The notes under the pieces are model-generated. The model saw only the letters and a list, made by a program, of their open reading frames with translations. It was not told where the DNA came from and did not search any database. Position numbers and translations under genes: made by a program. Positions 8,288-64,000 of a stretch of DNA of 64,000 bases are shown piece after piece (position 1 is the stretch's first letter; the number at the start of each line of letters is the position of its first letter). This DNA is from Escherichia phage vB_EcoM_3HA11, in the sequence record MN342150, one strand, 5' to 3'.

Positions 8288-8356
8288 TCGACACTAAATC
8301 CTCAAGTTCGACTTTCACTTTAAATACCTTCGCATACATTGCGGAGGTATTTTCTT

Positions 8357-9151
8357 ATGGCCATTCTAAAACTTGGCAACCGAGGTTCTGAAGTCAAAGC
8401 GCTTCAACAAAGCCTCAACAAAATCGGTTTCTCCCTTACAGCCGATGGCATATTTGGTAAAGCAACAGAGAATGCTGTCAAATCCGTTCAGGCAGGTGCT
8501 GGATTGGTTATTGATGGTATTGCTGGGCCAAAGACCTTCTATGCTATCCGCAACTCTGGAGACGCTCATCAGGAACATCTGACCGAAGCGGACTTGGTTG
8601 ACGCAGCACGTGAACTTGGTGTTGAGCTGGCCAGTATGAAAGCTGTGAATCAGGTAGAATCCCGTGGCACGGGTTTTACCAAAACCGGCAAGATCAAAAC
8701 TCTGTTTGAGCGCCACATCATGTACAAAAAGGTGACGGCCAAATTCGGACAAGCAAGAGCCAATGCTCTGTACCAACTCTACCCAACATTGGTTAACCCC
8801 AATTCTGGCGGGTATATCGGCGGAGACGCGGAGTTGGAACGCCTTCAGGGTGCAATCGCCCTTGACGAGGACTGCGCTTACGAGAGTGCTTCCTACGGCC
8901 TATTCCAGATCATGGGGTTCAACTGCCAAATCTGTGGATATCCAAATGCCAAAGAGATGTTCACTGATTTCCTGACTGGTGAACGCGCTCATCTTCTGGC
9001 ATTTGTCAAGTTCATCAAGGCTGATGCCAATATGTGGAAAGCCCTGAAGAACAAGAATTGGGCCGAGTTTGCTCGTCGGTACAATGGTCCGGCATATGCG
9101 AAAAACCAGTATGATACTAAACTGGCGGCAGCATACAAGAGTTTCTGTTAA
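8357..9151 (+). CDS. endolysin: peptidoglycan-binding domain plus N-acetylmuramidase-like catalytic domain
   Basis: N-terminal repeat LQQSLNKIGF...DGIFGKATENAV / DGIAGPKTFYAI typical of PG-binding domains; C-terminal ASYGLFQIMGFN muramidase-type block; SD GGAGG before the ATG at 8357. Confidence 0.75.
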   Translation: MAILKLGNRGSEVKALQQSLNKIGFSLTADGIFGKATENAVKSVQAGAGLVIDGIAGPKTFYAIRNSGDAHQEHLTEADLVDAARELGVELASMKAVNQVESRGTGFTKTGKIKTLFERHIMYKKVTAKFGQARANALYQLYPTLVNPNSGGYIGGDAELERLQGAIALDEDCAYESASYGLFQIMGFNCQICGYPNAKEMFTDFLTGERAHLLAFVKFIKADANMWKALKNKNWAEFARRYNGPAYAKNQYDTKLAAAYKSFC

Positions 9152-9256: not shown

Positions 9257-10096
9257 ATGCAATCTGCGTCTAAAGTTGTATCCATGAAGCCAGCGAAGAC
9301 AAAATCTGCTCGTAAGAAAGACACCATCCAGAAGGAAGAAGACTGGATGAAGTTTTCCAAAGGCGATTTCAAAATTGCTCCGTTCAATGGCCTCTCAGAA
9401 AATCAGAACCTCGCATATCAATCCGCATTAAACGAACACCTCACTATCGCTATCGGTCCGGCAGGTACAGGCAAATCCTATTGTGGTGCGTCCGCTGCTG
9501 CCAAGCATCTGATTGACAAAACCATCAACAAGATTATCATCACGCGTTCTCCTTTACCGACCGGAACCACAGCGGGGTTCCGGCCTGGTGACACATATGA
9601 AAAGCTGATGCCTTATTTGATGCCGCTCATACAGACATTCAAAAAGGTTCTCAAAACAGATACGGGTTCCGACGGTTTCTTCAACTATCTGTGGGAGAAA
9701 CGGATCATAGAAATTCAAGACCTTGAAACTGTAAAGGGAATGACCTTCGATGATTGTTTTCTGATTATCGAAGAGGCGCAGGAATGCGATATGGAGCAGC
9801 TGAAGAACTTACTGACCCGTGCTTCAGATTCTTCGTACATCTTCGTGAATGGAGATATCAAACAGTCTAACAAGCGACTGCGTGATAGTGCGTTACAGAC
9901 GTATGTGGATTCCTTTAAAGACTTCAACAACAAGCTGGAAACATATTCCTTGCAAATTGACGGTGTAGAAATCGGAGATGAATATCCAGAGTGGGTTCAA
10001 CCATTCAGCATCATCGAATTCGATAAGTCTGATCGTAATGGACGCGGTAACTTCACCCGCCTGATGTTAGAAATTAACGACCTGTACAACATTTAA
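9257..10096 (+). CDS. phoH: PhoH-like ATPase
   Basis: Walker A GPAGTGKS and overall PhoH-family layout; SD GGAAGG before the ATG at 9257. Confidence 0.75.
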   Translation: MQSASKVVSMKPAKTKSARKKDTIQKEEDWMKFSKGDFKIAPFNGLSENQNLAYQSALNEHLTIAIGPAGTGKSYCGASAAAKHLIDKTINKIIITRSPLPTGTTAGFRPGDTYEKLMPYLMPLIQTFKKVLKTDTGSDGFFNYLWEKRIIEIQDLETVKGMTFDDCFLIIEEAQECDMEQLKNLLTRASDSSYIFVNGDIKQSNKRLRDSALQTYVDSFKDFNNKLETYSLQIDGVEIGDEYPEWVQPFSIIEFDKSDRNGRGNFTRLMLEINDLYNI

Positions 10097-33253: not shown

Positions 33254-34447
33254 ATGAAAGCCAAGACCTTCAGTATTCCTATCGACAACATTGGTCGTGT
33301 CAAGGAACGTCTGGCCAAACTTGAAAGAACGGCCAAGCGCCTGAATCTCGAGTTCCCTCTTGTCGAATACAGCGAACCATACAAAACCCAGCATCGCGAT
33401 TCTATCACTGGTGAAAAATTCTATCGGTGGTGGCAGGATTGTACACTCACTGGTGAAGGCATCGACCGCCCCGTTTCCTACGGCGGGTGGAGCATTATTG
33501 GACAATTCAATCACCAATATCCAAAAGTCATCTTGAATAAATTAGCAGATGACATCCACCCTAATTTCATTCAAAGATTCGAAGCCGAAAACGTGTCTTG
33601 GTGTGAGCATTGTAATAAATCTGTGCGTCGTCATAACACATATGTTGTTCGTAACGAACAATCCGGCGCTCAAATGTTGGTCGGCAGTAGCTGTATGCAC
33701 CATTACGTTCCTCATCAGAAATCGCTTGATGCCGTGATGTCTTATTATATGTCGATACATGAAATGTTCTCACCTGATGAAGATGACCCTGAAGGCATCT
33801 ATCGAGTGAACGAACCTGATTACGTTGACACTGAAGGTTATTTGCGGAATTGCTTTCAGGTTCTGCTGTCTGGTATGAGTATGAAGAGCGATGATTTTGG
33901 TCGAGTTCTTGGTCATATTTCTAGCGGGACTCGTCCGGAGAAAGGTTCTGACATTGAGATATTCTATAACAAGGCTGTTAAAGCCCGTGAAGATGCTCAA
34001 TCAGAAATGTACCATATGATGCTTTTCATCGCCGCGTTGTCTGAGAACAATGATTTCAACGTTCGCCTGAAACGTATGTGTGAACCTGGATATCACCTCG
34101 TTAAGGACTCCACGACAGTTCGTTGGGGAGCAGCAAAGTATTATGATTATATCCACACCCCCCGCCAAATGCGTTCTGTATCAAATTGGGTGGGGGAAGT
34201 CGGTGAAATGTTAGAAGTGCAAGTCAAATTCGAAGCAAGGATTTTCCTGCATTCATCTGATTATGGTGACACGTATCTGTATACTTTCAAAACCAAAGAA
34301 GGCAATACCATTACATGGAAGACTTCTTATATGGAAACCGAATTCCTGGAAGGTGATATGATCATTCGTGGTCGCGTCAAAGAATTGACCGAATTCAAAG
34401 ATGTTAAACAAACTCAGGTAACAAGGGCAAAACTGAGGAAATTATGA
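33254..34447 (+). CDS. hypothetical protein (397 aa) with Cys/His cluster (CEHC...CMHH)
   Basis: Long ORF, SD GAGAGG; putative zinc site around residues 115-150. Confidence 0.55.
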   Translation: MKAKTFSIPIDNIGRVKERLAKLERTAKRLNLEFPLVEYSEPYKTQHRDSITGEKFYRWWQDCTLTGEGIDRPVSYGGWSIIGQFNHQYPKVILNKLADDIHPNFIQRFEAENVSWCEHCNKSVRRHNTYVVRNEQSGAQMLVGSSCMHHYVPHQKSLDAVMSYYMSIHEMFSPDEDDPEGIYRVNEPDYVDTEGYLRNCFQVLLSGMSMKSDDFGRVLGHISSGTRPEKGSDIEIFYNKAVKAREDAQSEMYHMMLFIAALSENNDFNVRLKRMCEPGYHLVKDSTTVRWGAAKYYDYIHTPRQMRSVSNWVGEVGEMLEVQVKFEARIFLHSSDYGDTYLYTFKTKEGNTITWKTSYMETEFLEGDMIIRGRVKELTEFKDVKQTQVTRAKLRKL

Positions 34448-34560
34448 TTCTTTTACAATTTGTTTTGAAAGCATTTGCATTCGGTCTTATCGCATGCGGA
34501 GTGATCACAGCTATGCTGTTAATCATAGCCCTGATCATCCCCTTTAAGAGGAAACGCTGA
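34444..34560 (+). CDS. micro-ORF encoding a 38-aa hydrophobic peptide (MILLQFVLKAFAFGLIACGVITAMLLIIALIIPFKRKR)
   Basis: ATG overlaps the upstream stop (ATGA) and its stop overlaps the next start (TGATG); not in the supplied track because it is under 60 aa. Confidence 0.3.
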   Translation: MILLQFVLKAFAFGLIACGVITAMLLIIALIIPFKRKR

Positions 34561-34769
34561 TGGAATGTTCATGCGGAGGGCAAGGCACAAGTGCATACTT
34601 GCCATTTAACACCGTCAAGGAAGCCGAAGACGCTGGATATGCCGTGGATAAGGCTCCCTGTGTAATTGCCACCAAGGATTGTCCGTGCTGTAAGAGGCAC
34701 TCTCAGAACGTTTGGTATGCCCCAGAAGCAAAGGGCAAAATTAATTTATTGAATATGATGAGGAAGTAA
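34560..34769 (+). CDS. small Cys-rich protein (CSCGG...CPCCKRH)
   Basis: ORF with 6 Cys in 69 aa. Confidence 0.45.
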   Translation: MECSCGGQGTSAYLPFNTVKEAEDAGYAVDKAPCVIATKDCPCCKRHSQNVWYAPEAKGKINLLNMMRK

Positions 34770-34770
34770 T

Positions 34771-35112
34771 ATGACCACACTCGTAGAAACATTATTCCCA
34801 GGATGCACCCTTGGGCGCGGTGGTAGCGAAGCCAACGGGCTGGCAATTGACGCCGAACCCCAGAACTGCGTTGTTATCGACAAATTCCATGACAATCATT
34901 ATGCTCTGAATGATCGTCGCGATCATTATTTGGTTTCTGTGGGAGAATCTTTGGTTCACCTTCGAATCTGTTCTGCTTTACCAGGATATGGGTATGACGC
35001 ATTTGCTTATATCCATGATGTTTCCAACGGCGCGTTGGGGAAAGAATCCCTGATTGAAAAATTCAAGAGTTGGAAGGAGTCCTTCACCTCTGTCACACCA
35101 CCTAAGAAATAA
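34771..35112 (+). CDS. hypothetical protein
   Basis: ORF. Confidence 0.45.
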   Translation: MTTLVETLFPGCTLGRGGSEANGLAIDAEPQNCVVIDKFHDNHYALNDRRDHYLVSVGESLVHLRICSALPGYGYDAFAYIHDVSNGALGKESLIEKFKSWKESFTSVTPPKK

Positions 35113-35127
35113 TTGAGGAATATATTA

Positions 35128-35736
35128 ATGTCACTGAAAACATTTTTAAACCGCCTGTTCAGCACTGTCGAGGCCAATTTAACTGCAGGTTTGGATAAAC
35201 TCACAGATACCGAGAAGCGTTTGAATCTGGCTGCACGGAAACTATCTGATGAAATCCGGCGTTTAGAAGAAGCCCGTGTAACCAATGTCCACCATGGCGT
35301 TAAGATGAAGAAGACCGCTGATGAAAATCTGGCTGAAGCCATCAAGCGAGAAACCATTTTGAAAGATGCGATCGCTCGTGGAGTAACTCCTACCCGCGCC
35401 GAAGCTTTAATCATACTCCACCGCCGTCGTATTGGTGAAGCCTTGCTGGATAAAGTCAAAGAGATCGAATCTGGCAGCGTGAAATTGAATTCGGCGATTG
35501 TTGAATTGGGTGACAAACTGGACGCTGTTAAGTCTAATCTCGAATTGGTCCGAATTCAGAAAGAATCGAATGATCTTGGGTTAACTTTACCGGAAGACAT
35601 CGATTACGCGGCTGGAATGATTAATGTCGATGTTGATGCTATCCTTCGGGAAGCTGAAATCGCAGATTCCAATTATTCTACCAATAGCCCTTCAGCAACA
35701 GAAGCGGACAATTATCTGGCAAATTTATCAAAATAA
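35128..35736 (+). CDS. PspA/IM30-like coiled-coil protein (putative)
   Basis: N-terminal amphipathic helix MSLKTFLNRLFSTVEANL followed by long heptad-like helices, reminiscent of PspA/Vipp1; ATG at 35128 with SD GAGGAA. Confidence 0.4.
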   Translation: MSLKTFLNRLFSTVEANLTAGLDKLTDTEKRLNLAARKLSDEIRRLEEARVTNVHHGVKMKKTADENLAEAIKRETILKDAIARGVTPTRAEALIILHRRRIGEALLDKVKEIESGSVKLNSAIVELGDKLDAVKSNLELVRIQKESNDLGLTLPEDIDYAAGMINVDVDAILREAEIADSNYSTNSPSATEADNYLANLSK

Positions 35737-35773
35737 TATAGAAGGGGCATGTGCCCCTTCATTTGGGGGATTT

Positions 35774-36346
35774 ATGGTCATTATTGACTCAACAGATATT
35801 TTGATTGCTGTTCTTAGTATGGTTGGGGTCTGTATTCTCGTTATGGGAATCAAAAAATCTTTGGGAAAACAAGTTGTTGAGGCCGTCTCCTCAGATTTAC
35901 AACCAGAAAATACCACGAAAAATGTTAAAGACATAAAACTTATTCTGAGTAGCCGTGTGTCCAAAAGTTTGGTTCCGAGCATAGATGATTTCAACTTACA
36001 CTACAAAGACCCAGACACTACTCCTGAAGAATATTTTCAATATTTCATGAAAGGTTTGGGTTGGCCGTTCATAGAATCGTGTGTATCAAAATCAAATTGT
36101 TTCTATTTGAAAATAGCATGTAAAGGTGAATATCAGGCTGTATGGTTTTGGAATTACGACGACACTTACGATAAACAATTTTTGATATATCTTCACAGGT
36201 TGTTTAAAGAGTATATGAACAACGGCAATGTCCCTGTTCACAAGGTAGAAACTGTAGAATCTATCGTGGATCGTGCTCGAACTCGTAATGGAACGAAACC
36301 AGATTATCTTTCCAAGTATGGATTTGTTTGGAAGGAGGACATATGA
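35774..36346 (+). CDS. membrane-anchored protein (N-terminal TM helix plus about 165-aa soluble domain)
   Basis: TM segment ILIAVLSMVGVCILVMGI right after the ATG at 35774 (SD GGGGGA). Confidence 0.45.
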   Translation: MVIIDSTDILIAVLSMVGVCILVMGIKKSLGKQVVEAVSSDLQPENTTKNVKDIKLILSSRVSKSLVPSIDDFNLHYKDPDTTPEEYFQYFMKGLGWPFIESCVSKSNCFYLKIACKGEYQAVWFWNYDDTYDKQFLIYLHRLFKEYMNNGNVPVHKVETVESIVDRARTRNGTKPDYLSKYGFVWKEDI

Positions 36347-36510
36347 AAGACATTTCATTTTATATTTGGTCTGCAATATTATTTTTCGGGATCTTGATTA
36401 TTCTTTTTCAACCGTTTTGGGCCGAATGGATCAATAATAGAAGAATGCGCAAATATGGAGTGGATGTTCTTCAGATTGTAGATAAGGCTAGAAAAAGACG
36501 CAGCAAATAA
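36343..36510 (+). CDS. small single-TM protein (55 aa)
   Basis: SD GGAGGA; hydrophobic IWSAILFFGILIILF; ATGA overlap with the upstream gene. Confidence 0.4.
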   Translation: MKDISFYIWSAILFFGILIILFQPFWAEWINNRRMRKYGVDVLQIVDKARKRRSK

Positions 36511-36563
36511 ATCTATTGAAGTCTCTGGGGTTATAATAACAAGACGAATAACCCTGGAGACAC

Positions 36564-37991
36564 ATGATGCTTCCTCTCTTAGAAATAATCCAAAATCTTC
36601 GTGATACCAAAGGCACTAATGCTAAGAAAGCCGTGTTGACCGAAGCGTTCAGAACCAATCCGGAACTGGTTGATTTCCTTCAATACGTTTATGATCCAAT
36701 GCGTTCTTATTATCGCACCCAATTCAATCTGAATGCATTCCCTCGTATGCTTTCGCGCGGCGTTGTCGGTAGCTGGGATCAGGTTTATGACGTTCTTGAT
36801 ATGATGTCAGAACGTCGTATTGGCGGGATGAAGGCCGACCAAGAACTGGCAAAAGCCGCAACGAATATTCACTCTGATTATCACACCCTCATCCAGATCA
36901 TTCTCGACCGAGACATTAAAGCGGGGATTGCTGAGAAAGGTATCAACGCAGCATTCAACGCAGCCGGAGGCACAGGTCGCCTGATTAACATCCTCCCATA
37001 TCATCGTTATGGCAACATGACGATTGATTTGTTGAAGACGATGGACTTTAAGCGTGGCGTCTTCAGCCAGCTGAAGTCAGATGGCATGTTCGCCAACATC
37101 ATCTGTCGTTATGGAAGAGACCCAGAGATTCGTTCTCGTTCCGGTTCTCTTATTGCAGGAGGTTCTGTTGATAACCTGTCATTAGTTTTCAAAGACCTGA
37201 TCTACGATGCGGGGATTGGTGAAAGTGTATTCCATGGTGAACTCCTCGTCATTGATCTGAAAACGAATACAGTGTTGCCTCGGGCTATCGGCAATGGTAA
37301 GCTCAACAGTGTCATCCAAACGGGTGAACCCCTGGAAGATCGTTACAAGGTGATCTACCGAGTGTGGGATGTTGTGCCGTATGACAAGTGGTTCGCCGCC
37401 GAGCGCGTGGACACGCCTTACGAGCAGCGCTTCGATATCATACAGCAACTGTTTGATGAAGGCGATGGTCTGGTTCAGGTTCAGGAGACCCGTGTCGTTC
37501 ATTCGTTCGAAGAGGCGGTTGATCATTTCAAGGACGCACTGGCCCGTGGTGAAGAAGGAACGATCTGCAAAGCGGCTGATATGCCATGGGAAGACGGCAC
37601 GTCCTCTGAAGGTCTGAAGCTGAAGATGGAAGTAGAATGTGACCTTGAAATCGTTGGCTTCAATGAGGCCGACAAGAAAGGGAAACACGCCAAGACATTT
37701 GGTTCCCTCCTCTGCAAGACATCCGACGGCCTATTAGTCGTTGGTGTCTCTGGGATCTCAGATGAGCTGAGACTCCGGATGTGGGAAAACCAGGGCGACT
37801 ACATTGGCATGATAGCTGCAGTGCTCTCTAACGGTGTCCAGGATAAAACAGATGACGCCATGAAGTCCTTGTTCCTCCCGCGACTTGTCGAAGTGCGCAC
37901 AGACAAGAAAGTTGCCAACACGCTGGCTGAAGTCTATGCTATCCAGAAAGCGTACATTGAAAACATTCTGGTGTTGTTAGAGGCAGCATAG
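36564..37991 (+). CDS. 30: ATP-dependent DNA ligase (T4 gp30-like)
   Basis: Adenylation motif KSDG (LKSDGMFAN), 475 aa, nucleotidyltransferase plus OB-fold layout. Confidence 0.85.
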   Translation: MMLPLLEIIQNLRDTKGTNAKKAVLTEAFRTNPELVDFLQYVYDPMRSYYRTQFNLNAFPRMLSRGVVGSWDQVYDVLDMMSERRIGGMKADQELAKAATNIHSDYHTLIQIILDRDIKAGIAEKGINAAFNAAGGTGRLINILPYHRYGNMTIDLLKTMDFKRGVFSQLKSDGMFANIICRYGRDPEIRSRSGSLIAGGSVDNLSLVFKDLIYDAGIGESVFHGELLVIDLKTNTVLPRAIGNGKLNSVIQTGEPLEDRYKVIYRVWDVVPYDKWFAAERVDTPYEQRFDIIQQLFDEGDGLVQVQETRVVHSFEEAVDHFKDALARGEEGTICKAADMPWEDGTSSEGLKLKMEVECDLEIVGFNEADKKGKHAKTFGSLLCKTSDGLLVVGVSGISDELRLRMWENQGDYIGMIAAVLSNGVQDKTDDAMKSLFLPRLVEVRTDKKVANTLAEVYAIQKAYIENILVLLEAA

Positions 37992-37992
37992 T

Positions 37993-38020
37993 CACGATTG
38001 AATTAAGGGGGGTATAACCC
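37993..38020 (+). terminator. rho-independent terminator (GGGGGGT-ATAA-CCCCCC plus TTT)
   Basis: Hairpin after ligase. Confidence 0.5.
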
Positions 38021-59449: not shown

Positions 59450-61033
59450 TTACTTGTACAGACCGTCAACGTCAATAGATTTATGTTGGCGGTTGTATTC
59501 CGTGGTATAGTCATCCATCACGAGATATTCACAGCAACGGATTTTACTAGAACCGTAATCATCAGTGATAGACACGATGTCTTTCGGGTTCAGTTTACAA
59601 CGCACAACCCGCTGGCCCAGGCTACCGAAACATTGTTTCAGATACGCCAGAGAACAAACGTGAAGACCATAGGAGCACAGGTCTTTGTTGTTATCGTTCA
59701 CGAATGAGCGAGCCATCCGGACGATAGTGCCAGGTGCGTTGCTGACTTTACCTGTGCGCTTATCCATATAATTTCCGCGAACGGATTTGTATAGAATAAT
59801 GTCGCCGTCTTCATGAATCTCAATGTCTGAGTATGCCATGAATTCATAGATCCGACCAGACTGAACCAGCGCGGCGCTCGGGTTTTGGAACATCTTGTCA
59901 AGGAAACGGCCCAAGCGTTCCAAGTTCGGATAATCGCCTTTTAATGCCAAAGCCAAAATGCGTTTGGCAACGGAAGTTCCGGTGATATCATAGCCACCCC
60001 AGCGAACACGGTTGTCTGAAAGATCAACCATGCCTGTAGTGAATTGTTTGATGGCTTCACGCGGTTTCATCAGAGTGTAAGCTGTTTTGACGTCACGATT
60101 TTTAATCGCTTCAACAATACGGTCATACGCCTGGTGGCTCGTTGTGATCGTTTCCGGTTTACCATCGACCACAATCACGATACTTTCCGGCAAAATCATG
60201 ATCTGGTGTTCGTTCAGGAACACAGACAGTTCTTTTTCATTAAATGAATTCTGAGTTTGCTTGTCGCCTGTTTCTTCAACAACTGCAACCGTCTTGACCA
60301 CGAATAATACGGATGACAATGCCAGACGAAGTGTACGGCCTAAAATTGCATCAAAGTAACCCACGCGCCGACGGGCATCAAGGGAACCGCGCATCGGATA
60401 TGTTTCACCGTCATGCTGTACGCTGATTTCCACACCATCATTGACTTTAACCACGCCATCAACCAATGCAGTAGCCAGTTCTGCTAACGGCGAAATATTT
60501 TCTTCATTGAAGCGGCTTGACCGAGTTTCTAACGGTTTCAGTTCTTCGCTTCTGAAAAGTTTGGCCTGAATAGCAGCAGAGCTATCATAACGCATACAGA
60601 TAAACACTGTTTGGTTTTCCAGGAAACGGCCAACATACCATTCTTCGCCTTCAGAATCGACAGACACCGAACCTTCCAGAACTTCATAGGTGTCGGGGAT
60701 TTTGCCTTCTTCAGTCAATTCTTTAATTGGCGAAATCACGACCACGTTATTAGATTCTTTGATGATACGAACCATCAGGGCGCGGGCAATTGTTTTGGCA
60801 CTGACACCATAAATTGATGCCAGAGAAGAATTGCTTTCACCTTTGCTGCTCTTGGTTTGTATTTCTTGAATCTGTTCTGTGGTCAGAGACTTAATCGAAG
60901 CCGGATCCACTCCCAGTTCTTTATCCGACACGCGTTGTATCATTGAGCGCGGTACGCCCAATTCACTGGCTATTGAACTTTGACTTCTGTTCTCATTCAA
61001 CAGCTTGAGAATACGTTTTTCTATAGCATTCAT
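59450..61033 (-). CDS. rIIB: rIIB-like protein (membrane-associated rII protein B)
   Basis: N-terminal HTH-like region plus C-terminal block CSYGLHVCS...RVVRCKLNPKDIVSI matching T4 rIIB; 527 aa, directly downstream of rIIA. Confidence 0.8.
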   Translation of the reverse strand: MNAIEKRILKLLNENRSQSSIASELGVPRSMIQRVSDKELGVDPASIKSLTTEQIQEIQTKSSKGESNSSLASIYGVSAKTIARALMVRIIKESNNVVVISPIKELTEEGKIPDTYEVLEGSVSVDSEGEEWYVGRFLENQTVFICMRYDSSAAIQAKLFRSEELKPLETRSSRFNEENISPLAELATALVDGVVKVNDGVEISVQHDGETYPMRGSLDARRRVGYFDAILGRTLRLALSSVLFVVKTVAVVEETGDKQTQNSFNEKELSVFLNEHQIMILPESIVIVVDGKPETITTSHQAYDRIVEAIKNRDVKTAYTLMKPREAIKQFTTGMVDLSDNRVRWGGYDITGTSVAKRILALALKGDYPNLERLGRFLDKMFQNPSAALVQSGRIYEFMAYSDIEIHEDGDIILYKSVRGNYMDKRTGKVSNAPGTIVRMARSFVNDNNKDLCSYGLHVCSLAYLKQCFGSLGQRVVRCKLNPKDIVSITDDYGSSKIRCCEYLVMDDYTTEYNRQHKSIDVDGLYK

Positions 61034-61065
61034 CTTGTAGTTCTCACTGTGGGGTAATGGGGCTA

Positions 61066-63807
61066 TTATGCCCCGAGAATACGTTTTGAAATAGCCTTCA
61101 CAAATCTAGTGGCATCTTCAATCGCATTATGCGCCGTTGGCTGATATTTTGACATCATGAATTTCACCAAACGATGACATTCAACTCGGTATCGGTTTTT
61201 GGCCTTTTGCTTTTGAGATATAGTGCTAGTGACCTTTATCTCATCAAATCCTTCAGTAGTTAATTTTTCATTCAATAAATCAACAACTTGAGTTAACTGG
61301 TTACAGGCGCGGAAAAATCTCGTAGTTGAGAAAGGCATTTCTATACGATAATGTAATTCCTCAACAGCCTTGCGGAAATAACCGTACCCCGATCCAGACG
61401 GGTTTCGTTTGGCCAGCATACGAACAACCTTCCATTCTTCTTCAGTGATTTGTTGTTTCGCATAACCGATGATTGCTTTTGCCCTGTGTTGATGATGAGC
61501 ATAGCCATCCGTAACTTCTCCATGGGAATCAATCAACAGCTTGGCACCATAATCAATGCGATGAGACATGATGTTTATGCCCTTGCGAAGTTTCAGGAGT
61601 TTCTTAGATTCAAGCGCCTGAAATTCATCTTTATAATGCTCAAGCAACATATCAAACACTGCGTCAATGGGGATGAATACTTCTGGGAATTTCTTCATCA
61701 TCGGAACAGATTTACGACGCGCAAGAACGATTGTTGGATGCGCTCCCAGCAAATCAAACATGTTTTCGTTTCCATTCTCGCCGAACTTCGTTCTTTCCAT
61801 CGCTTCACGCAAATGTCCAGCCGTGGATTGTCGTAAGGTATTACCATGAATTTTATGGATACCTTCTCGGCCAGATACTTCGATGTATACGATCTTTTTG
61901 CCTGAATCAATAATATCTGAAACGGTTTTTCCATCCAATTCATAAACGCTGTCGAAGTTAAATGAATTGTAATGGAAACTAAACATCCCAGGATCTTTTT
62001 CAACGGTCGGGCGAACATATTCCATTTCATGCATGAAATAAACTTCATCCGGATTGAATAAATCGCCAAAAACCTCGATCAGTTTATCGGCAAAGACCAG
62101 GTAGTCCGGTGTTGTTTCTTGTACACCGATCCATGATTCAAAATAAGACTTCAATTCCTCATGGTTGGTGAATGATTCTTTATGTGCCGCCAGCTGATTC
62201 CGATTACTGAAATAATTTTCATTCGGTTTGACGACGATAACGACATTGAAGTTATTGCGTGCTGTTTGTATCTTCAGGTTTCGAGCACGATTCGAGTTAT
62301 CAATAATAACAGCAATTTTTGATTTAGATTTCAACCAATTTCCGACAGAGTTCACATAAATGCTGTCGTGTACTACACCGTCGTCGTGTACTTCAATTTC
62401 GTAAGGACTACCAATAGACCGGAAAGGTGCATCCACAGAGTAATCGCGCACGACGTCCGGCGCTCCGATATAACGGAACGTGCCTTTGTAGAAACGGTTA
62501 TCTGCAGGAAATTCTCGCTCCACTAATTTACGGAAACCACTACCGAACATATCGGTCAATTGAGCCTTCTTCATATAAAGCATAAGAGGACCCATAGATT
62601 CGGCCTGGCGAAGTTCATACATCTTCGCCTGCATAATATTGTCAGCCACATATTTGAACACTCGGTTCAGGCTTTCACGGGTGAACTCGTCATATGACAA
62701 GTCTTCACGTGATGGAGGAACATTCAATTCTCCAAGTTCAAAGAATGTATAGGAACTCGGGAATTTCTCCAGCACCGAACGTATTTCAGAATCCAATTGC
62801 TCAAGATCTATCGGATAAGAAACCCCGCCCATAACGGCATAGTGGGTATTATCAGAATCAGACTTCGGCTGAATATACGTGTTGCCCACACGGTTTTCAA
62901 AATTGATGTCCTGCCAGCGGAAAGAATAACTGGCATTTTCAACCTTCGGGCGCATTGATGGGCGCATAACTCGACCCAGACGGACCAGTTCTTGTTCAAA
63001 TGCGGTAAATCGCTGATTCTTTACAGGCACTTTAACAGTCAGACCATTGAACTCATCAGTGTCTTCTGGTTTCGGATCACGGGTATCCAAATCCTTGGTG
63101 ATCAGGTCCACAGTAGGAATCCTGTCCGCATTCAGATACATAAGGAAGCGATACAGTTTACCTTCATAACGACTTTCTACAGTAAATGAGTCCGACACTG
63201 CAAATGGGGATTTAGAACCCAGACCAAACGCGCCGATCTGCCCGTCGTCGTCCTCTTTGGTGCTATGGAAGAGTGTGGTGTACAAACCAGGTCCACGGAT
63301 GATCTCGCCATCCTCAGCGCGGAATACCAACACCCCATTGTAATAACCAGGCGTCCCAATAACAGCAGTGCTGTCAGGGATCTCATCTTCCTTTACAACA
63401 ATGTTGCCTTCGACAAGCACTTCATCTTCCCGCGCTGCGATAGGTTCCCCGATAATCATTTCTAACGGAAGGCCAATCCCATAATCCTTGATTTCCAACC
63501 ATGGTTCCATAACATCAGGTAAATGGACCACAACGGGCGTCCCTTTGGGAGCAAGATGCTTGCTGTATCTTTGGGGCATAGGGGTAAGAGGGGCATAATG
63601 GGACGGCAACCAACGCTGTTGGCGATCGCGCATATTATGCGAGTCTATACCGTTACATAACGTCTCACGCAAAGATGCGGCCTCTTTATATTTGTAGAGA
63701 CTTGAGAACAATGTTTCAAATAATTTATCCGTCATCTTGACATTAAATGTCTGTCCGACGATAGTGGAAGAAGAGCGCACGAAATGCTCAGACTTGCGCA
63801 TTTTCAT
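61066..63807 (-). CDS. rIIA: rIIA-like protein (GHKL ATPase-fold rII protein A)
   Basis: N-terminal LFSSLYKYKEAASLRETLCNGIDSH matches T4 rIIA [25 protein letters not shown]; 913 aa. Confidence 0.82.
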   Translation of the reverse strand: MKMRKSEHFVRSSSTIVGQTFNVKMTDKLFETLFSSLYKYKEAASLRETLCNGIDSHNMRDRQQRWLPSHYAPLTPMPQRYSKHLAPKGTPVVVHLPDVMEPWLEIKDYGIGLPLEMIIGEPIAAREDEVLVEGNIVVKEDEIPDSTAVIGTPGYYNGVLVFRAEDGEIIRGPGLYTTLFHSTKEDDDGQIGAFGLGSKSPFAVSDSFTVESRYEGKLYRFLMYLNADRIPTVDLITKDLDTRDPKPEDTDEFNGLTVKVPVKNQRFTAFEQELVRLGRVMRPSMRPKVENASYSFRWQDINFENRVGNTYIQPKSDSDNTHYAVMGGVSYPIDLEQLDSEIRSVLEKFPSSYTFFELGELNVPPSREDLSYDEFTRESLNRVFKYVADNIMQAKMYELRQAESMGPLMLYMKKAQLTDMFGSGFRKLVEREFPADNRFYKGTFRYIGAPDVVRDYSVDAPFRSIGSPYEIEVHDDGVVHDSIYVNSVGNWLKSKSKIAVIIDNSNRARNLKIQTARNNFNVVIVVKPNENYFSNRNQLAAHKESFTNHEELKSYFESWIGVQETTPDYLVFADKLIEVFGDLFNPDEVYFMHEMEYVRPTVEKDPGMFSFHYNSFNFDSVYELDGKTVSDIIDSGKKIVYIEVSGREGIHKIHGNTLRQSTAGHLREAMERTKFGENGNENMFDLLGAHPTIVLARRKSVPMMKKFPEVFIPIDAVFDMLLEHYKDEFQALESKKLLKLRKGINIMSHRIDYGAKLLIDSHGEVTDGYAHHQHRAKAIIGYAKQQITEEEWKVVRMLAKRNPSGSGYGYFRKAVEELHYRIEMPFSTTRFFRACNQLTQVVDLLNEKLTTEGFDEIKVTSTISQKQKAKNRYRVECHRLVKFMMSKYQPTAHNAIEDATRFVKAISKRILGA

Positions 63808-63875
63808 AGTATAGAATTCCTATTCAGTTTCAAAGGGAAACACATTATTGGGTAATGGGTATGATACTGGTGGGA

Positions 63876-63904
63876 GACTCAATAGAAAAAGCCTCCAAAA
63901 GGAG
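63876..63904 (-). terminator. rho-independent terminator on minus strand (GCCTCC-TTTT-GGAGGC plus T run)
   Basis: Hairpin between a truncated upstream gene and rIIA. Confidence 0.5.
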
Positions 63905-63916
63905 GCTTAATCAGGT

Positions 63917-64000
63917 TTAACTCTGGTCTACATTTACAACGGCAGCGTTAAAGTTGAATGTCGGATGGGTAGCGCCTGGCTCTAACGTTTCTTCCAGATA
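63917..64000 (-). CDS. 3' end of a minus-strand gene that starts beyond the window
   Basis: Open frame from the window edge ending at a TAA near 63917 (translation ...VVNVDQS). Confidence 0.25.
   Translation of the reverse strand, partial: YLEETLEPGATHPTFNFNAAVVNVDQS

Follow-up and report, generated by a model that had tools for sequence, protein, structure and literature searches.

Why does a virulent phage carry a gene that resembles pspA, with two membrane-protein genes directly behind it? The question is raised by a locus of Escherichia phage vB_EcoM_3HA11 (sequence record MN342150), of which we analysed one stretch of 64,000 nucleotides (nt), called the window from here on. PspA was named after phage-induced stress and is now regarded as an ESCRT-III protein with which bacteria seal leaks in their membranes. 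An earlier note on this DNA, made from its letters, had listed three consecutive open reading frames (ORFs), likened the first product to the PspA/IM30 proteins, and suggested a membrane-stress or lysis-timing module. All three ORFs are present on the plus strand, and we refer to them as genes 1, 2 and 3 (Table 1). We find that gene 1 very probably represents a divergent branch of the PspA/IM30/ESCRT-III superfamily, that profile alignments identify it as a full-length orthologue of T4 gene e.6, and that it travels with genes 2 and 3 as one cassette.

The start of gene 1 is an ATG with an upstream GAGGA Shine-Dalgarno sequence, and all homologues share its MSLK N-terminus. Its product matches the Pfam PspA_IM30 profile (PF04012) with an E-value of 3.6e-8, residues 7-146 falling on profile positions 3-143. 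The next Pfam families are generic coiled coils with E of at least 0.016, at least five orders of magnitude weaker. The same profile is matched at E <=0.01 by 29 of 30 orthologues of gene 1 (48-88% identical), with a best E of 3.8e-12. When a profile of the orthologues is compared to all PDB sequences, Vipp1/PspA take the top five places (E 0.027-0.046) with residues 6-145 on 3-143; a phmmer search of the PDB with the single gene 1 sequence gives no match. A wider family alignment, with 41 sequences and identities down to about 18%, finds E. coli PspA with E 3.2e-5. Aligning this family by hhalign to a 65-sequence enterobacterial PspA alignment gives a probability of 88% and E 2.9e-6 over 152 columns from residue 1, where reversed-sequence controls give E 0.27-0.51. 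By every method, the match starts at residue 3-7 in both partners and spans 140-150 columns. The wider family alignment draws on an exhaustive profile search, which collects only 39 representative clusters at E <=0.001; nearly all of their full-length members are 195-209 residues long.

The N-terminus of gene 1 aligns residue for residue with the signature of PspA helix a0. Its first 18-mer has a hydrophobic moment of 0.418 (p 0.022 against shuffles), compared to 0.489 for helix a0 of E. coli PspA, and an amphipathic N-terminus at p <=0.05 is found in 20 of the 41 family members. The PspA/IM30 resemblance and the amphipathic helix of the earlier note are thus both supported, the former with agreement between Pfam, the PDB profile search and hhalign. 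The note had also proposed a structure prediction. The AlphaFold2 model (predicted local distance difference test, pLDDT, 74.6) has a long helical hairpin formed by residues 18-83 and 90-149 (pLDDT 73-97), then a loop and two short C-terminal helices; confidence is low for the first 20 residues of the protein when it is modelled as a free monomer. A Foldseek search of the PDB with this model is led by VIPP1 (7o3w and 7o3x, E 0.018). In BFVD, family members take the first five places, and the next matches are a PspA/IM30 protein from a phage and a Snf7 from a giant virus. No fold match outside the family reaches E 0.001, as expected of a helical hairpin. For the three cassette proteins and T4 e.6, a PADLOC search gives no match at E <=1 and an NCBIfam search gives chance-level matches only.

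What gene 1 has in common with bacterial PspA and Vipp1 is the N-terminal amphipathic helix followed by a predicted a1/a2-3 hairpin, in register over about 150 residues. It differs in being shorter (202 versus 222-260 residues) and in sharing only about 17% identity with the host PspA. A further difference is its C-terminal third (LGLxLPEDIDY...DVD...NYLASL), which only the phage family has. Carried by a virulent phage, gene 1 is far from the host's own PspA: a narrow enterobacterial PspA hidden Markov model (HMM) run on the ORFs of the window puts gene 1 on top, yet with an E of only 2.3. With this E-value and the low identity, we rejected a recent capture of host pspA. Homologues of gene 1 are found under misleading names such as "tail completion protein" in Klebsiella phages PWKp5 and UPM 2146 and "host specificity protein" in Kosakonia phage Kc304.

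The orthology with T4 e.6 is seen at full length. Using hhalign, the gene 1 family aligns to e.6 (197 residues) with probability 100 and E 1e-39 over 197 columns, and both proteins match phrog_1203, gene 1 with E 4.2e-66 over 198 of 200 positions and e.6 with E 8.1e-88. A tblastn search with gene 1 identifies 391 phage records, including many T4-like Straboviridae in which the gene is annotated e.6, and T4 e.6 as the query matches 1,107 phage records. The two proteins are about 23% identical and similar in size. Their surroundings differ: e.6 lies in the e-tRNA region of T4, five genes from the endolysin gene e, while gene 1 lies in a block of replication genes, and the genes that come after e.6 encode the soluble e.5 and two proteins, e.4 and e.3, with two transmembrane (TM) segments each. 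T4 has neither genes 2 and 3 nor the motif that these share (described below). Several data exist for e.6. Its RNA is classed as early and its protein as middle, which means that the protein has been detected (supplement of PMC9697503). Knocking it down by CRISPRi-ART has no fitness effect (supplement of PMC11879866), and in HIDEN-SEQ it tolerates insertions at 43 of 43 sites and is called non-essential. In the T4 record L13089, where e.6 is named msp3, a promoter is marked just before the gene and a stem-loop just after it.

The three genes behave as a unit, in agreement with the description of the locus as a module in the earlier note. The region is closest to Salmonella phage vB_STmST313_KE27 (99.2% identity), followed by phages GOT, N6, SeF3a and sal1 (about 98.8%); all of these are Kuttervirus (Ackermannviridae, Vi01-like), and so is the window. 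The trio is encoded inside the DNA replication block, in the order DnaB-like helicase, several small genes, genes 1, 2 and 3, ATP-dependent DNA ligase, and helicase loader. In Salmonella phage SeSz-1, a 113-residue gene is followed directly by the ligase leader and the trio is missing; homology to the window ends after "tctgtca" (position ~35095) and returns at "tctattgaag" (~36512). The trio is missing from PhaxI too. Of 225 related records, about 40 carry the cassette; only 37 span 80% or more of window positions 33254-38000, and most span about 70%, with a gap that matches the size of the trio. Within the relevant identity bands, genes 1, 2 and 3 are present in 42, 41 and 41 Kuttervirus records; the cassette is lacking in about 80% of sequenced Kutterviruses. 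The order of the locus is kept in Taipeivirus, in Agtrevirus, in another Aglimvirinae phage and in an unclassified 156-kb contig, always as a PspA-like gene, a protein of 177-191 residues with a single TM segment, one to three small single-TM proteins, and the ligase. The same order at the same site in several Ackermannviridae genera indicates that the cassette is ancestral here and that roughly four fifths of the sequenced Kutterviruses have lost it. Divergence is much quicker in genes 2 and 3 than in gene 1. The Mooltan type is about 88% identical in gene 1, 65% in gene 2 and 76% in gene 3, and the Klebsiella phages are about 75, 35 and 31% identical, respectively.

The spot itself is variable. 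Between the 113-residue gene and the ligase (window positions 34771-36563) SeSz-1 is empty (L015), PhaxI has other small genes nearby (gp09 and gp010; L016), and the last codons of the 113-residue gene differ between carriers and non-carriers of the cassette. The two ends of the cassette have a weak direct similarity, GAATATATTAATGTCACT at 35117-35134 versus AAATCTATTGAAGTCTCT at 36508-36525 (13 of 18 positions), which could be the microhomology behind a deletion of the cassette or could be chance.

Genes 2 and 3 each encode a protein with one predicted TM segment, in line with the two membrane proteins first noted after gene 1. For gene 2, the best start is behind a GGGGGA, and we prefer it because different genera share the M[VI]II[DS] N-terminus that it gives. 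The alternative starts at 35624 and 35630 in some GenBank records lie more than 100 nt inside gene 1, and we consider them unlikely. The ATG of gene 3 overlaps the stop codon of gene 2 and is preceded by an AAGGAGG Shine-Dalgarno sequence. In all 18 sequences of the gene 2 family, the N-terminal flank of the TM segment is short with a net charge of 0 or -1, and the 15 residues after it have a charge of +1 to +7. A cleavable signal peptide is unlikely, given that gene 2 has no basic n-region. The C-terminal tail of gene 3 has a charge of +7. The small downstream TM proteins all follow this pattern, with an acidic or neutral N-terminal flank and a tail of +4 to +7. The positive-inside rule predicts a cytoplasmic location for the gene 2 domain of 160 residues and for the gene 3 tail, on the same side of the membrane as the PspA-like protein; the large extracytoplasmic domain that had been attributed to gene 2 is not what the charge pattern predicts in any of the 18 family members. 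In the structure model, this part of gene 2 forms a small a/b domain (pLDDT 66 overall and 76-93 in the core), for which neither sequence nor fold searches give a significant match. The gene 2/3 region appears under the wrong name of "1-acyl-sn-glycerol-3-phosphate acyltransferase" in phages ISTP3 and STP55.

We tried several known families for these two proteins. A SUKH (SMI1_KNR4) domain in gene 2 stays below threshold and has no fold support, and a relationship of gene 2 to T4 e.5 is rejected with an hhalign probability of 1.2%. Gene 3 has a size and topology similar to those of PspB and a full-length BLASTP alignment to it, but with E 0.08 we do not accept the homology. The gene 2 family compared to PspC gives an hhalign probability of 0.6%. 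HMMs for PspB and PspC from 61-62 enterobacterial species do not score genes 2 and 3 above the background of window ORFs, and the region includes no PspF-like gene.

Genes 2 and 3 do share a short motif near their C-terminal ends, IVDRAR in gene 2 and IVDKAR in gene 3. In gene 2 it is the most conserved element of the family, with I164, R167 and A168 invariant and R169 nearly so in 18 sequences. In the form I-[IV]-x-[RKQN]-A-[RH], all 8 small TM proteins examined carry it at their C-terminal end, for example as IIKQAR in Klebsiella phage T751, IVNRAR in CRW-SP2 and IVARAR in IME250. Among the 343 six-frame ORFs of the window (35,556 residues), the strict motif occurs in genes 2 and 3 only; when 92% of the closest complete genome is read in six frames (79,944 residues of ORFs), it occurs three times, which amounts to about one chance hit. 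Shigella phage Ag3 (locus L099, positions 1743-2241) has three tandem small single-pass membrane proteins of 61, 55 and 50 residues that end in I-[IV]-x-x-A-R-x-R and have the motifs IVHNAR, IVSKAR and IISQAR, pointing to local duplication of the gene 3 type. A 46-residue ORF after gene 2 in one locus (L003) was considered as another small TM protein and rejected; it has neither a TM segment nor the motif and is probably mis-called. At its position, the Taipeivirus IME250 has a motif-bearing small protein, and the IME250 copy of the L003-like ORF (38 residues) lies across the end of gene 2 in a different frame.

Another conserved element is found in the RNA. A GC-rich stem-loop starts 5 nt past the gene 1 stop codon, and an equivalent GC-rich hairpin is present 5-15 nt past the stop of the e.6 homologue in all seven loci that we folded, T4 included, across Straboviridae and Ackermannviridae (5613-5635 in L005, 5616-5633 in L003, about 9290-9307 on the minus strand of the T4 locus L008, and also in L012, L013 and L014). 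The stem sequences vary while the structure is kept, and several of the hairpins have CUUCGG loops. There is no clear T-run behind the gene 1 stem-loop. It may mark a transcript 3' end, or it may be a stabiliser that sets the expression of gene 1 above that of the downstream genes. Predicted promoters and terminators around the cassette are not above shuffled expectation (13 versus 11.9 and 7 versus 5.0, respectively).

Our preferred reading of the region as a whole, which we hold tentatively and rate just short of an even bet, is that this accessory Kuttervirus cassette encodes a phage Psp-type membrane-maintenance system, a "mini-Psp". In bacteria, PspA homologues usually come with small membrane proteins that recruit them to the membrane, as PspA with PspBC and LiaH with LiaI. 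The cassette resembles these systems in having a PspA-type gene with small inner-membrane proteins; unlike the enterobacterial Psp system, it has no PspF and its partners are not homologous to PspB and PspC. The gene 1 protein would bind the cytoplasmic face of the inner membrane via its N-terminal amphipathic helix and would polymerise through its helical hairpin, like PspA and Vipp1. The products of genes 2 and 3, which present a common, predicted cytoplasmic motif peptide, would anchor, recruit or regulate it at the membrane; they would be analogues of PspB/PspC or LiaI in function but not in descent. If T4 e.6 is a guide, the cassette is probably made early to mid infection, which would be a time when transcription in the host has been shut off and its psp operon is not inducible. 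T4 infection induces the host psp operon weakly, and since the phage shuts off host expression, the response of the host would not be available. The module could then keep the membrane tight and the proton-motive force up, in the face of depolarising abortive-infection effectors, superinfection damage or premature holin firing. Early to middle expression in T4, together with an accessory cassette in a variable spot and a dispensable e.6, fits a conditional function in host maintenance or counter-defence better than a core step such as lysis.

T4 rIIA and rIIB offer a comparison. These membrane-associated proteins counter the Rex abortive-infection system and, as we propose for the cassette, are thought to protect the infected cell from depolarisation; the analogy is functional only, as there is no sequence relationship. 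The closest genome has rIIB and rIIA on its minus strand, at about 60840-64000 of the window (a position carried over from 123232-127589 of the KE27 record), and the phage may thus possess two systems against defence that acts at the membrane. A bolder proposal, to which we assign a rather low probability, is that the e.6 family is a virus-specific ESCRT-III/PspA branch that polymerises on the host inner membrane and that, in Ackermannviridae, is recruited by membrane anchors via I-[IV]-x-[RKQN]-A-R, as a repair against depolarising abortive-infection effectors. If so, T4 has an ESCRT-III-type protein that is so far unrecognised.

Among the alternatives, the one that survives best, and which we still consider unlikely, is that gene 1 is a true relative of the PspA fold acting as a cytoplasmic or membrane-proximal scaffold, for example at membrane-attached sites of replication or assembly, and has no role in membrane protection. 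ESCRT-III-fold proteins are versatile polymers. The Ackermannviridae gene sits between the replicative helicase and the ligase and helicase loader, and the e.6 homologue of Pseudotevenvirus sits between nrdD and nrdG, both of which suit a scaffold. The neighbourhood is however inconsistent across families, with the T4 copy among the e-tRNA genes, and it is hard to see a replication scaffold in a gene that T4 can dispense with and that most Kutterviruses have lost with their replication genes intact.

A second alternative is the one put forward in the earlier note, a lysis-timing (holin/antiholin) or superinfection-exclusion module in which gene 2 has the architecture of T4 holin T. Two small inner-membrane proteins are indeed present, T4 e.6 is near gene e, and T4 Imm and Sp are small early membrane proteins that exclude superinfection. 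Holin T (218 residues, a single TM segment) is also comparable in outline to gene 2. The likeness goes no further. In holin T, the N-terminal 29 residues are cytoplasmic and the C-terminal domain is periplasmic, the opposite of the N-out/C-in topology predicted for gene 2; an hhalign comparison of the two has a probability of 0.4%, and the cassette proteins match no holin family in Pfam or PHROGs. As the note already observed, the locus is far from the endolysin gene (about 26 kb), and it is embedded in the replication block. Moreover, the roughly 80% of sequenced Kutterviruses that do without the cassette are still lytic, and T4 e.6 is expressed at early to middle times and is dispensable for plaque formation. 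We give this alternative little credence: the holin T analogy and a role in lysis timing are not supported, and what may be left of it is superinfection exclusion.

We find it similarly improbable that the PspA-like protein is a regulatory mimic, one that binds host PspF or PspB/PspC to silence or hijack the phage-shock response and does not act on membranes. Helix a1 of E. coli PspA contacts PspF, and the region of gene 1 that aligns in register covers a1. The divergence from host PspA described above speaks against mimicry, as does the range of the e.6 family, which spans many host genera. These phages shut off host transcription anyway, T4 infection induces psp only weakly, and a mimic leaves the co-inherited membrane proteins unexplained.

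Returning to the mini-Psp reading, several observations weigh against it. Gene 1 alone scores 33.7 bits with PF04012, where the gathering cut-off is 33.9, so it falls 0.2 bits short. Searched singly, 29 of the 41 diverse family members miss PF04012 and 12 match it; T4 e.6 is another that does not reach it, which may explain why the PspA relationship has not been noted for T4. The Foldseek match to VIPP1 is not significant alone, and the equivalents of helices a4 and a5 are short (residues 169-176 and 190-201) and modelled with low confidence. The N-out/C-in orientation of genes 2 and 3 is predicted from hydropathy and the positive-inside rule only, and the link between their motif and the PspA-like protein is a proposal. 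T4-like phages retain e.6 in loci that have neither gene 2, gene 3 nor the motif, so the partners are not obligatory for the function of e.6. What is known of the three proteins comes from sequence comparison and prediction. The extreme position, that the PspA similarity is a compositional or coiled-coil artefact in an unrelated helical protein, can appeal to the sub-threshold Pfam score, the 12 of 41 count, and the fold and single-sequence PDB searches, and is nevertheless very doubtful in view of a match that begins at the N-terminus of both partners by every method, the far weaker scores of other coiled-coil families, the failure of the reversed-sequence controls, and an independent HHpred analysis with the same conclusion (PMC9409062).

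That HHpred analysis is due to Gendre et al. 2022, who reported the PspA homology of gp125 of phage SeF3a and proposed for it a role against abortive infection, without experiments (PMC9409062). SeF3a gp125 is the same gene as gene 1, in a region 98.8% identical to the window. GenBank names for gene 1 also include "PspA/IM30 family protein" (sal1) and "shock protein A" (SeF3a), and the copy in phage Ag3 is annotated as "e.6 conserved hypothetical protein". The PspA link of gene 1 is therefore already published. That report treats gp125 as a peculiarity of one phage and does not mention e.6 orthology, membrane partners, cassette limits, topology or the motif (PMC9409062); what is new here is the e.6 orthology, the co-inherited three-gene cassette, the predicted cytoplasmic orientation of the partners, and the shared tail motif. 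In a literature search whose coverage excludes subscription journals, we found no paper that ties T4 e.6 to PspA or ESCRT-III, and no experimental description of a phage-encoded PspA.

A virulent phage with its own PspA and membrane partners would show active upkeep of the host membrane during infection, which bears on how phages escape from defence systems that kill by membrane depolarisation. The e.6 link proposes a testable function, in a tractable system, for a long-orphan gene of the best-studied phage. The presence or absence of the cassette among near-identical Kutterviruses, which are used in biocontrol of Salmonella and E. coli O157, provides ready-made isogenic comparisons, and work on interactions and mutants can start from the shared tail motif.

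Table 1. Features of the three-gene locus and two other genes (positions in the 64,000-nt window).
Feature	Position	Strand	Basis or description
Presence/absence cassette with genes 1-3, ~1.4 kb, approximate limits	35096..36511	+	SeSz-1 comparison
Gene 1, PspA/IM30-like protein, 202 aa, T4 e.6 orthologue by profile alignment (phrog_1203)	35128..35736	+	
N-terminal amphipathic helix of gene 1, residues ~3-23, equivalent to PspA/Vipp1 helix a0	35134..35196	+	In-register alignment FLNRLFSTVEANLTAGLDKL vs PspA
GC-rich stem-loop past the gene 1 stop	35741..35760	+	GAAGGGGCAUGUGCCCCUUC, -16.1 kcal/mol
Gene 2, membrane-anchored protein, 190 aa (phrog_11433)	35774..36346	+	TM residues 8-26, predicted cytoplasmic a/b domain, conserved C-terminal motif
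Motif IVDRAR, gene 2 residues 164-169	36263..36280	+	Translation
Gene 3, small single-pass membrane protein, 55 aa (phrog_37830)	36343..36510	+	TM residues 4-22, basic tail, phrog_37830 E 1.1e-41
Motif IVDKAR, gene 3 residues 45-50	36475..36492	+	Translation
ATP-dependent DNA ligase	36564-37991		PF01068
Endolysin, Muramidase (PF11860) and peptidoglycan-binding domain	8339-9151		Pfam E 3.6e-58; ~26 kb from the three-gene cassette

Some further observations concern the neighbouring genes and the records used. The ligase is intact in the window; it is annotated as two to three pieces with an intervening HNH homing endonuclease in N6, ISTP3, pertopsoe and STP55. The 111-kb record OR844942.1, "Enterococcus phage Efm 3-10", is 91% identical to the Kuttervirus region and is probably mislabelled or contaminated. 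Upstream of the cassette, a hydrophobic 38-residue ORF (34444-34560) is called "HNH endonuclease" in the annotation of phage sal1, which looks like a mis-annotation. It adjoins a Cys-rich protein of 69 residues (34560-34769; C..C...CPCC, phrog_4789), and in Serratia phage KNP4 the Cys-rich protein is the N-terminal part of a 209-residue ORF.

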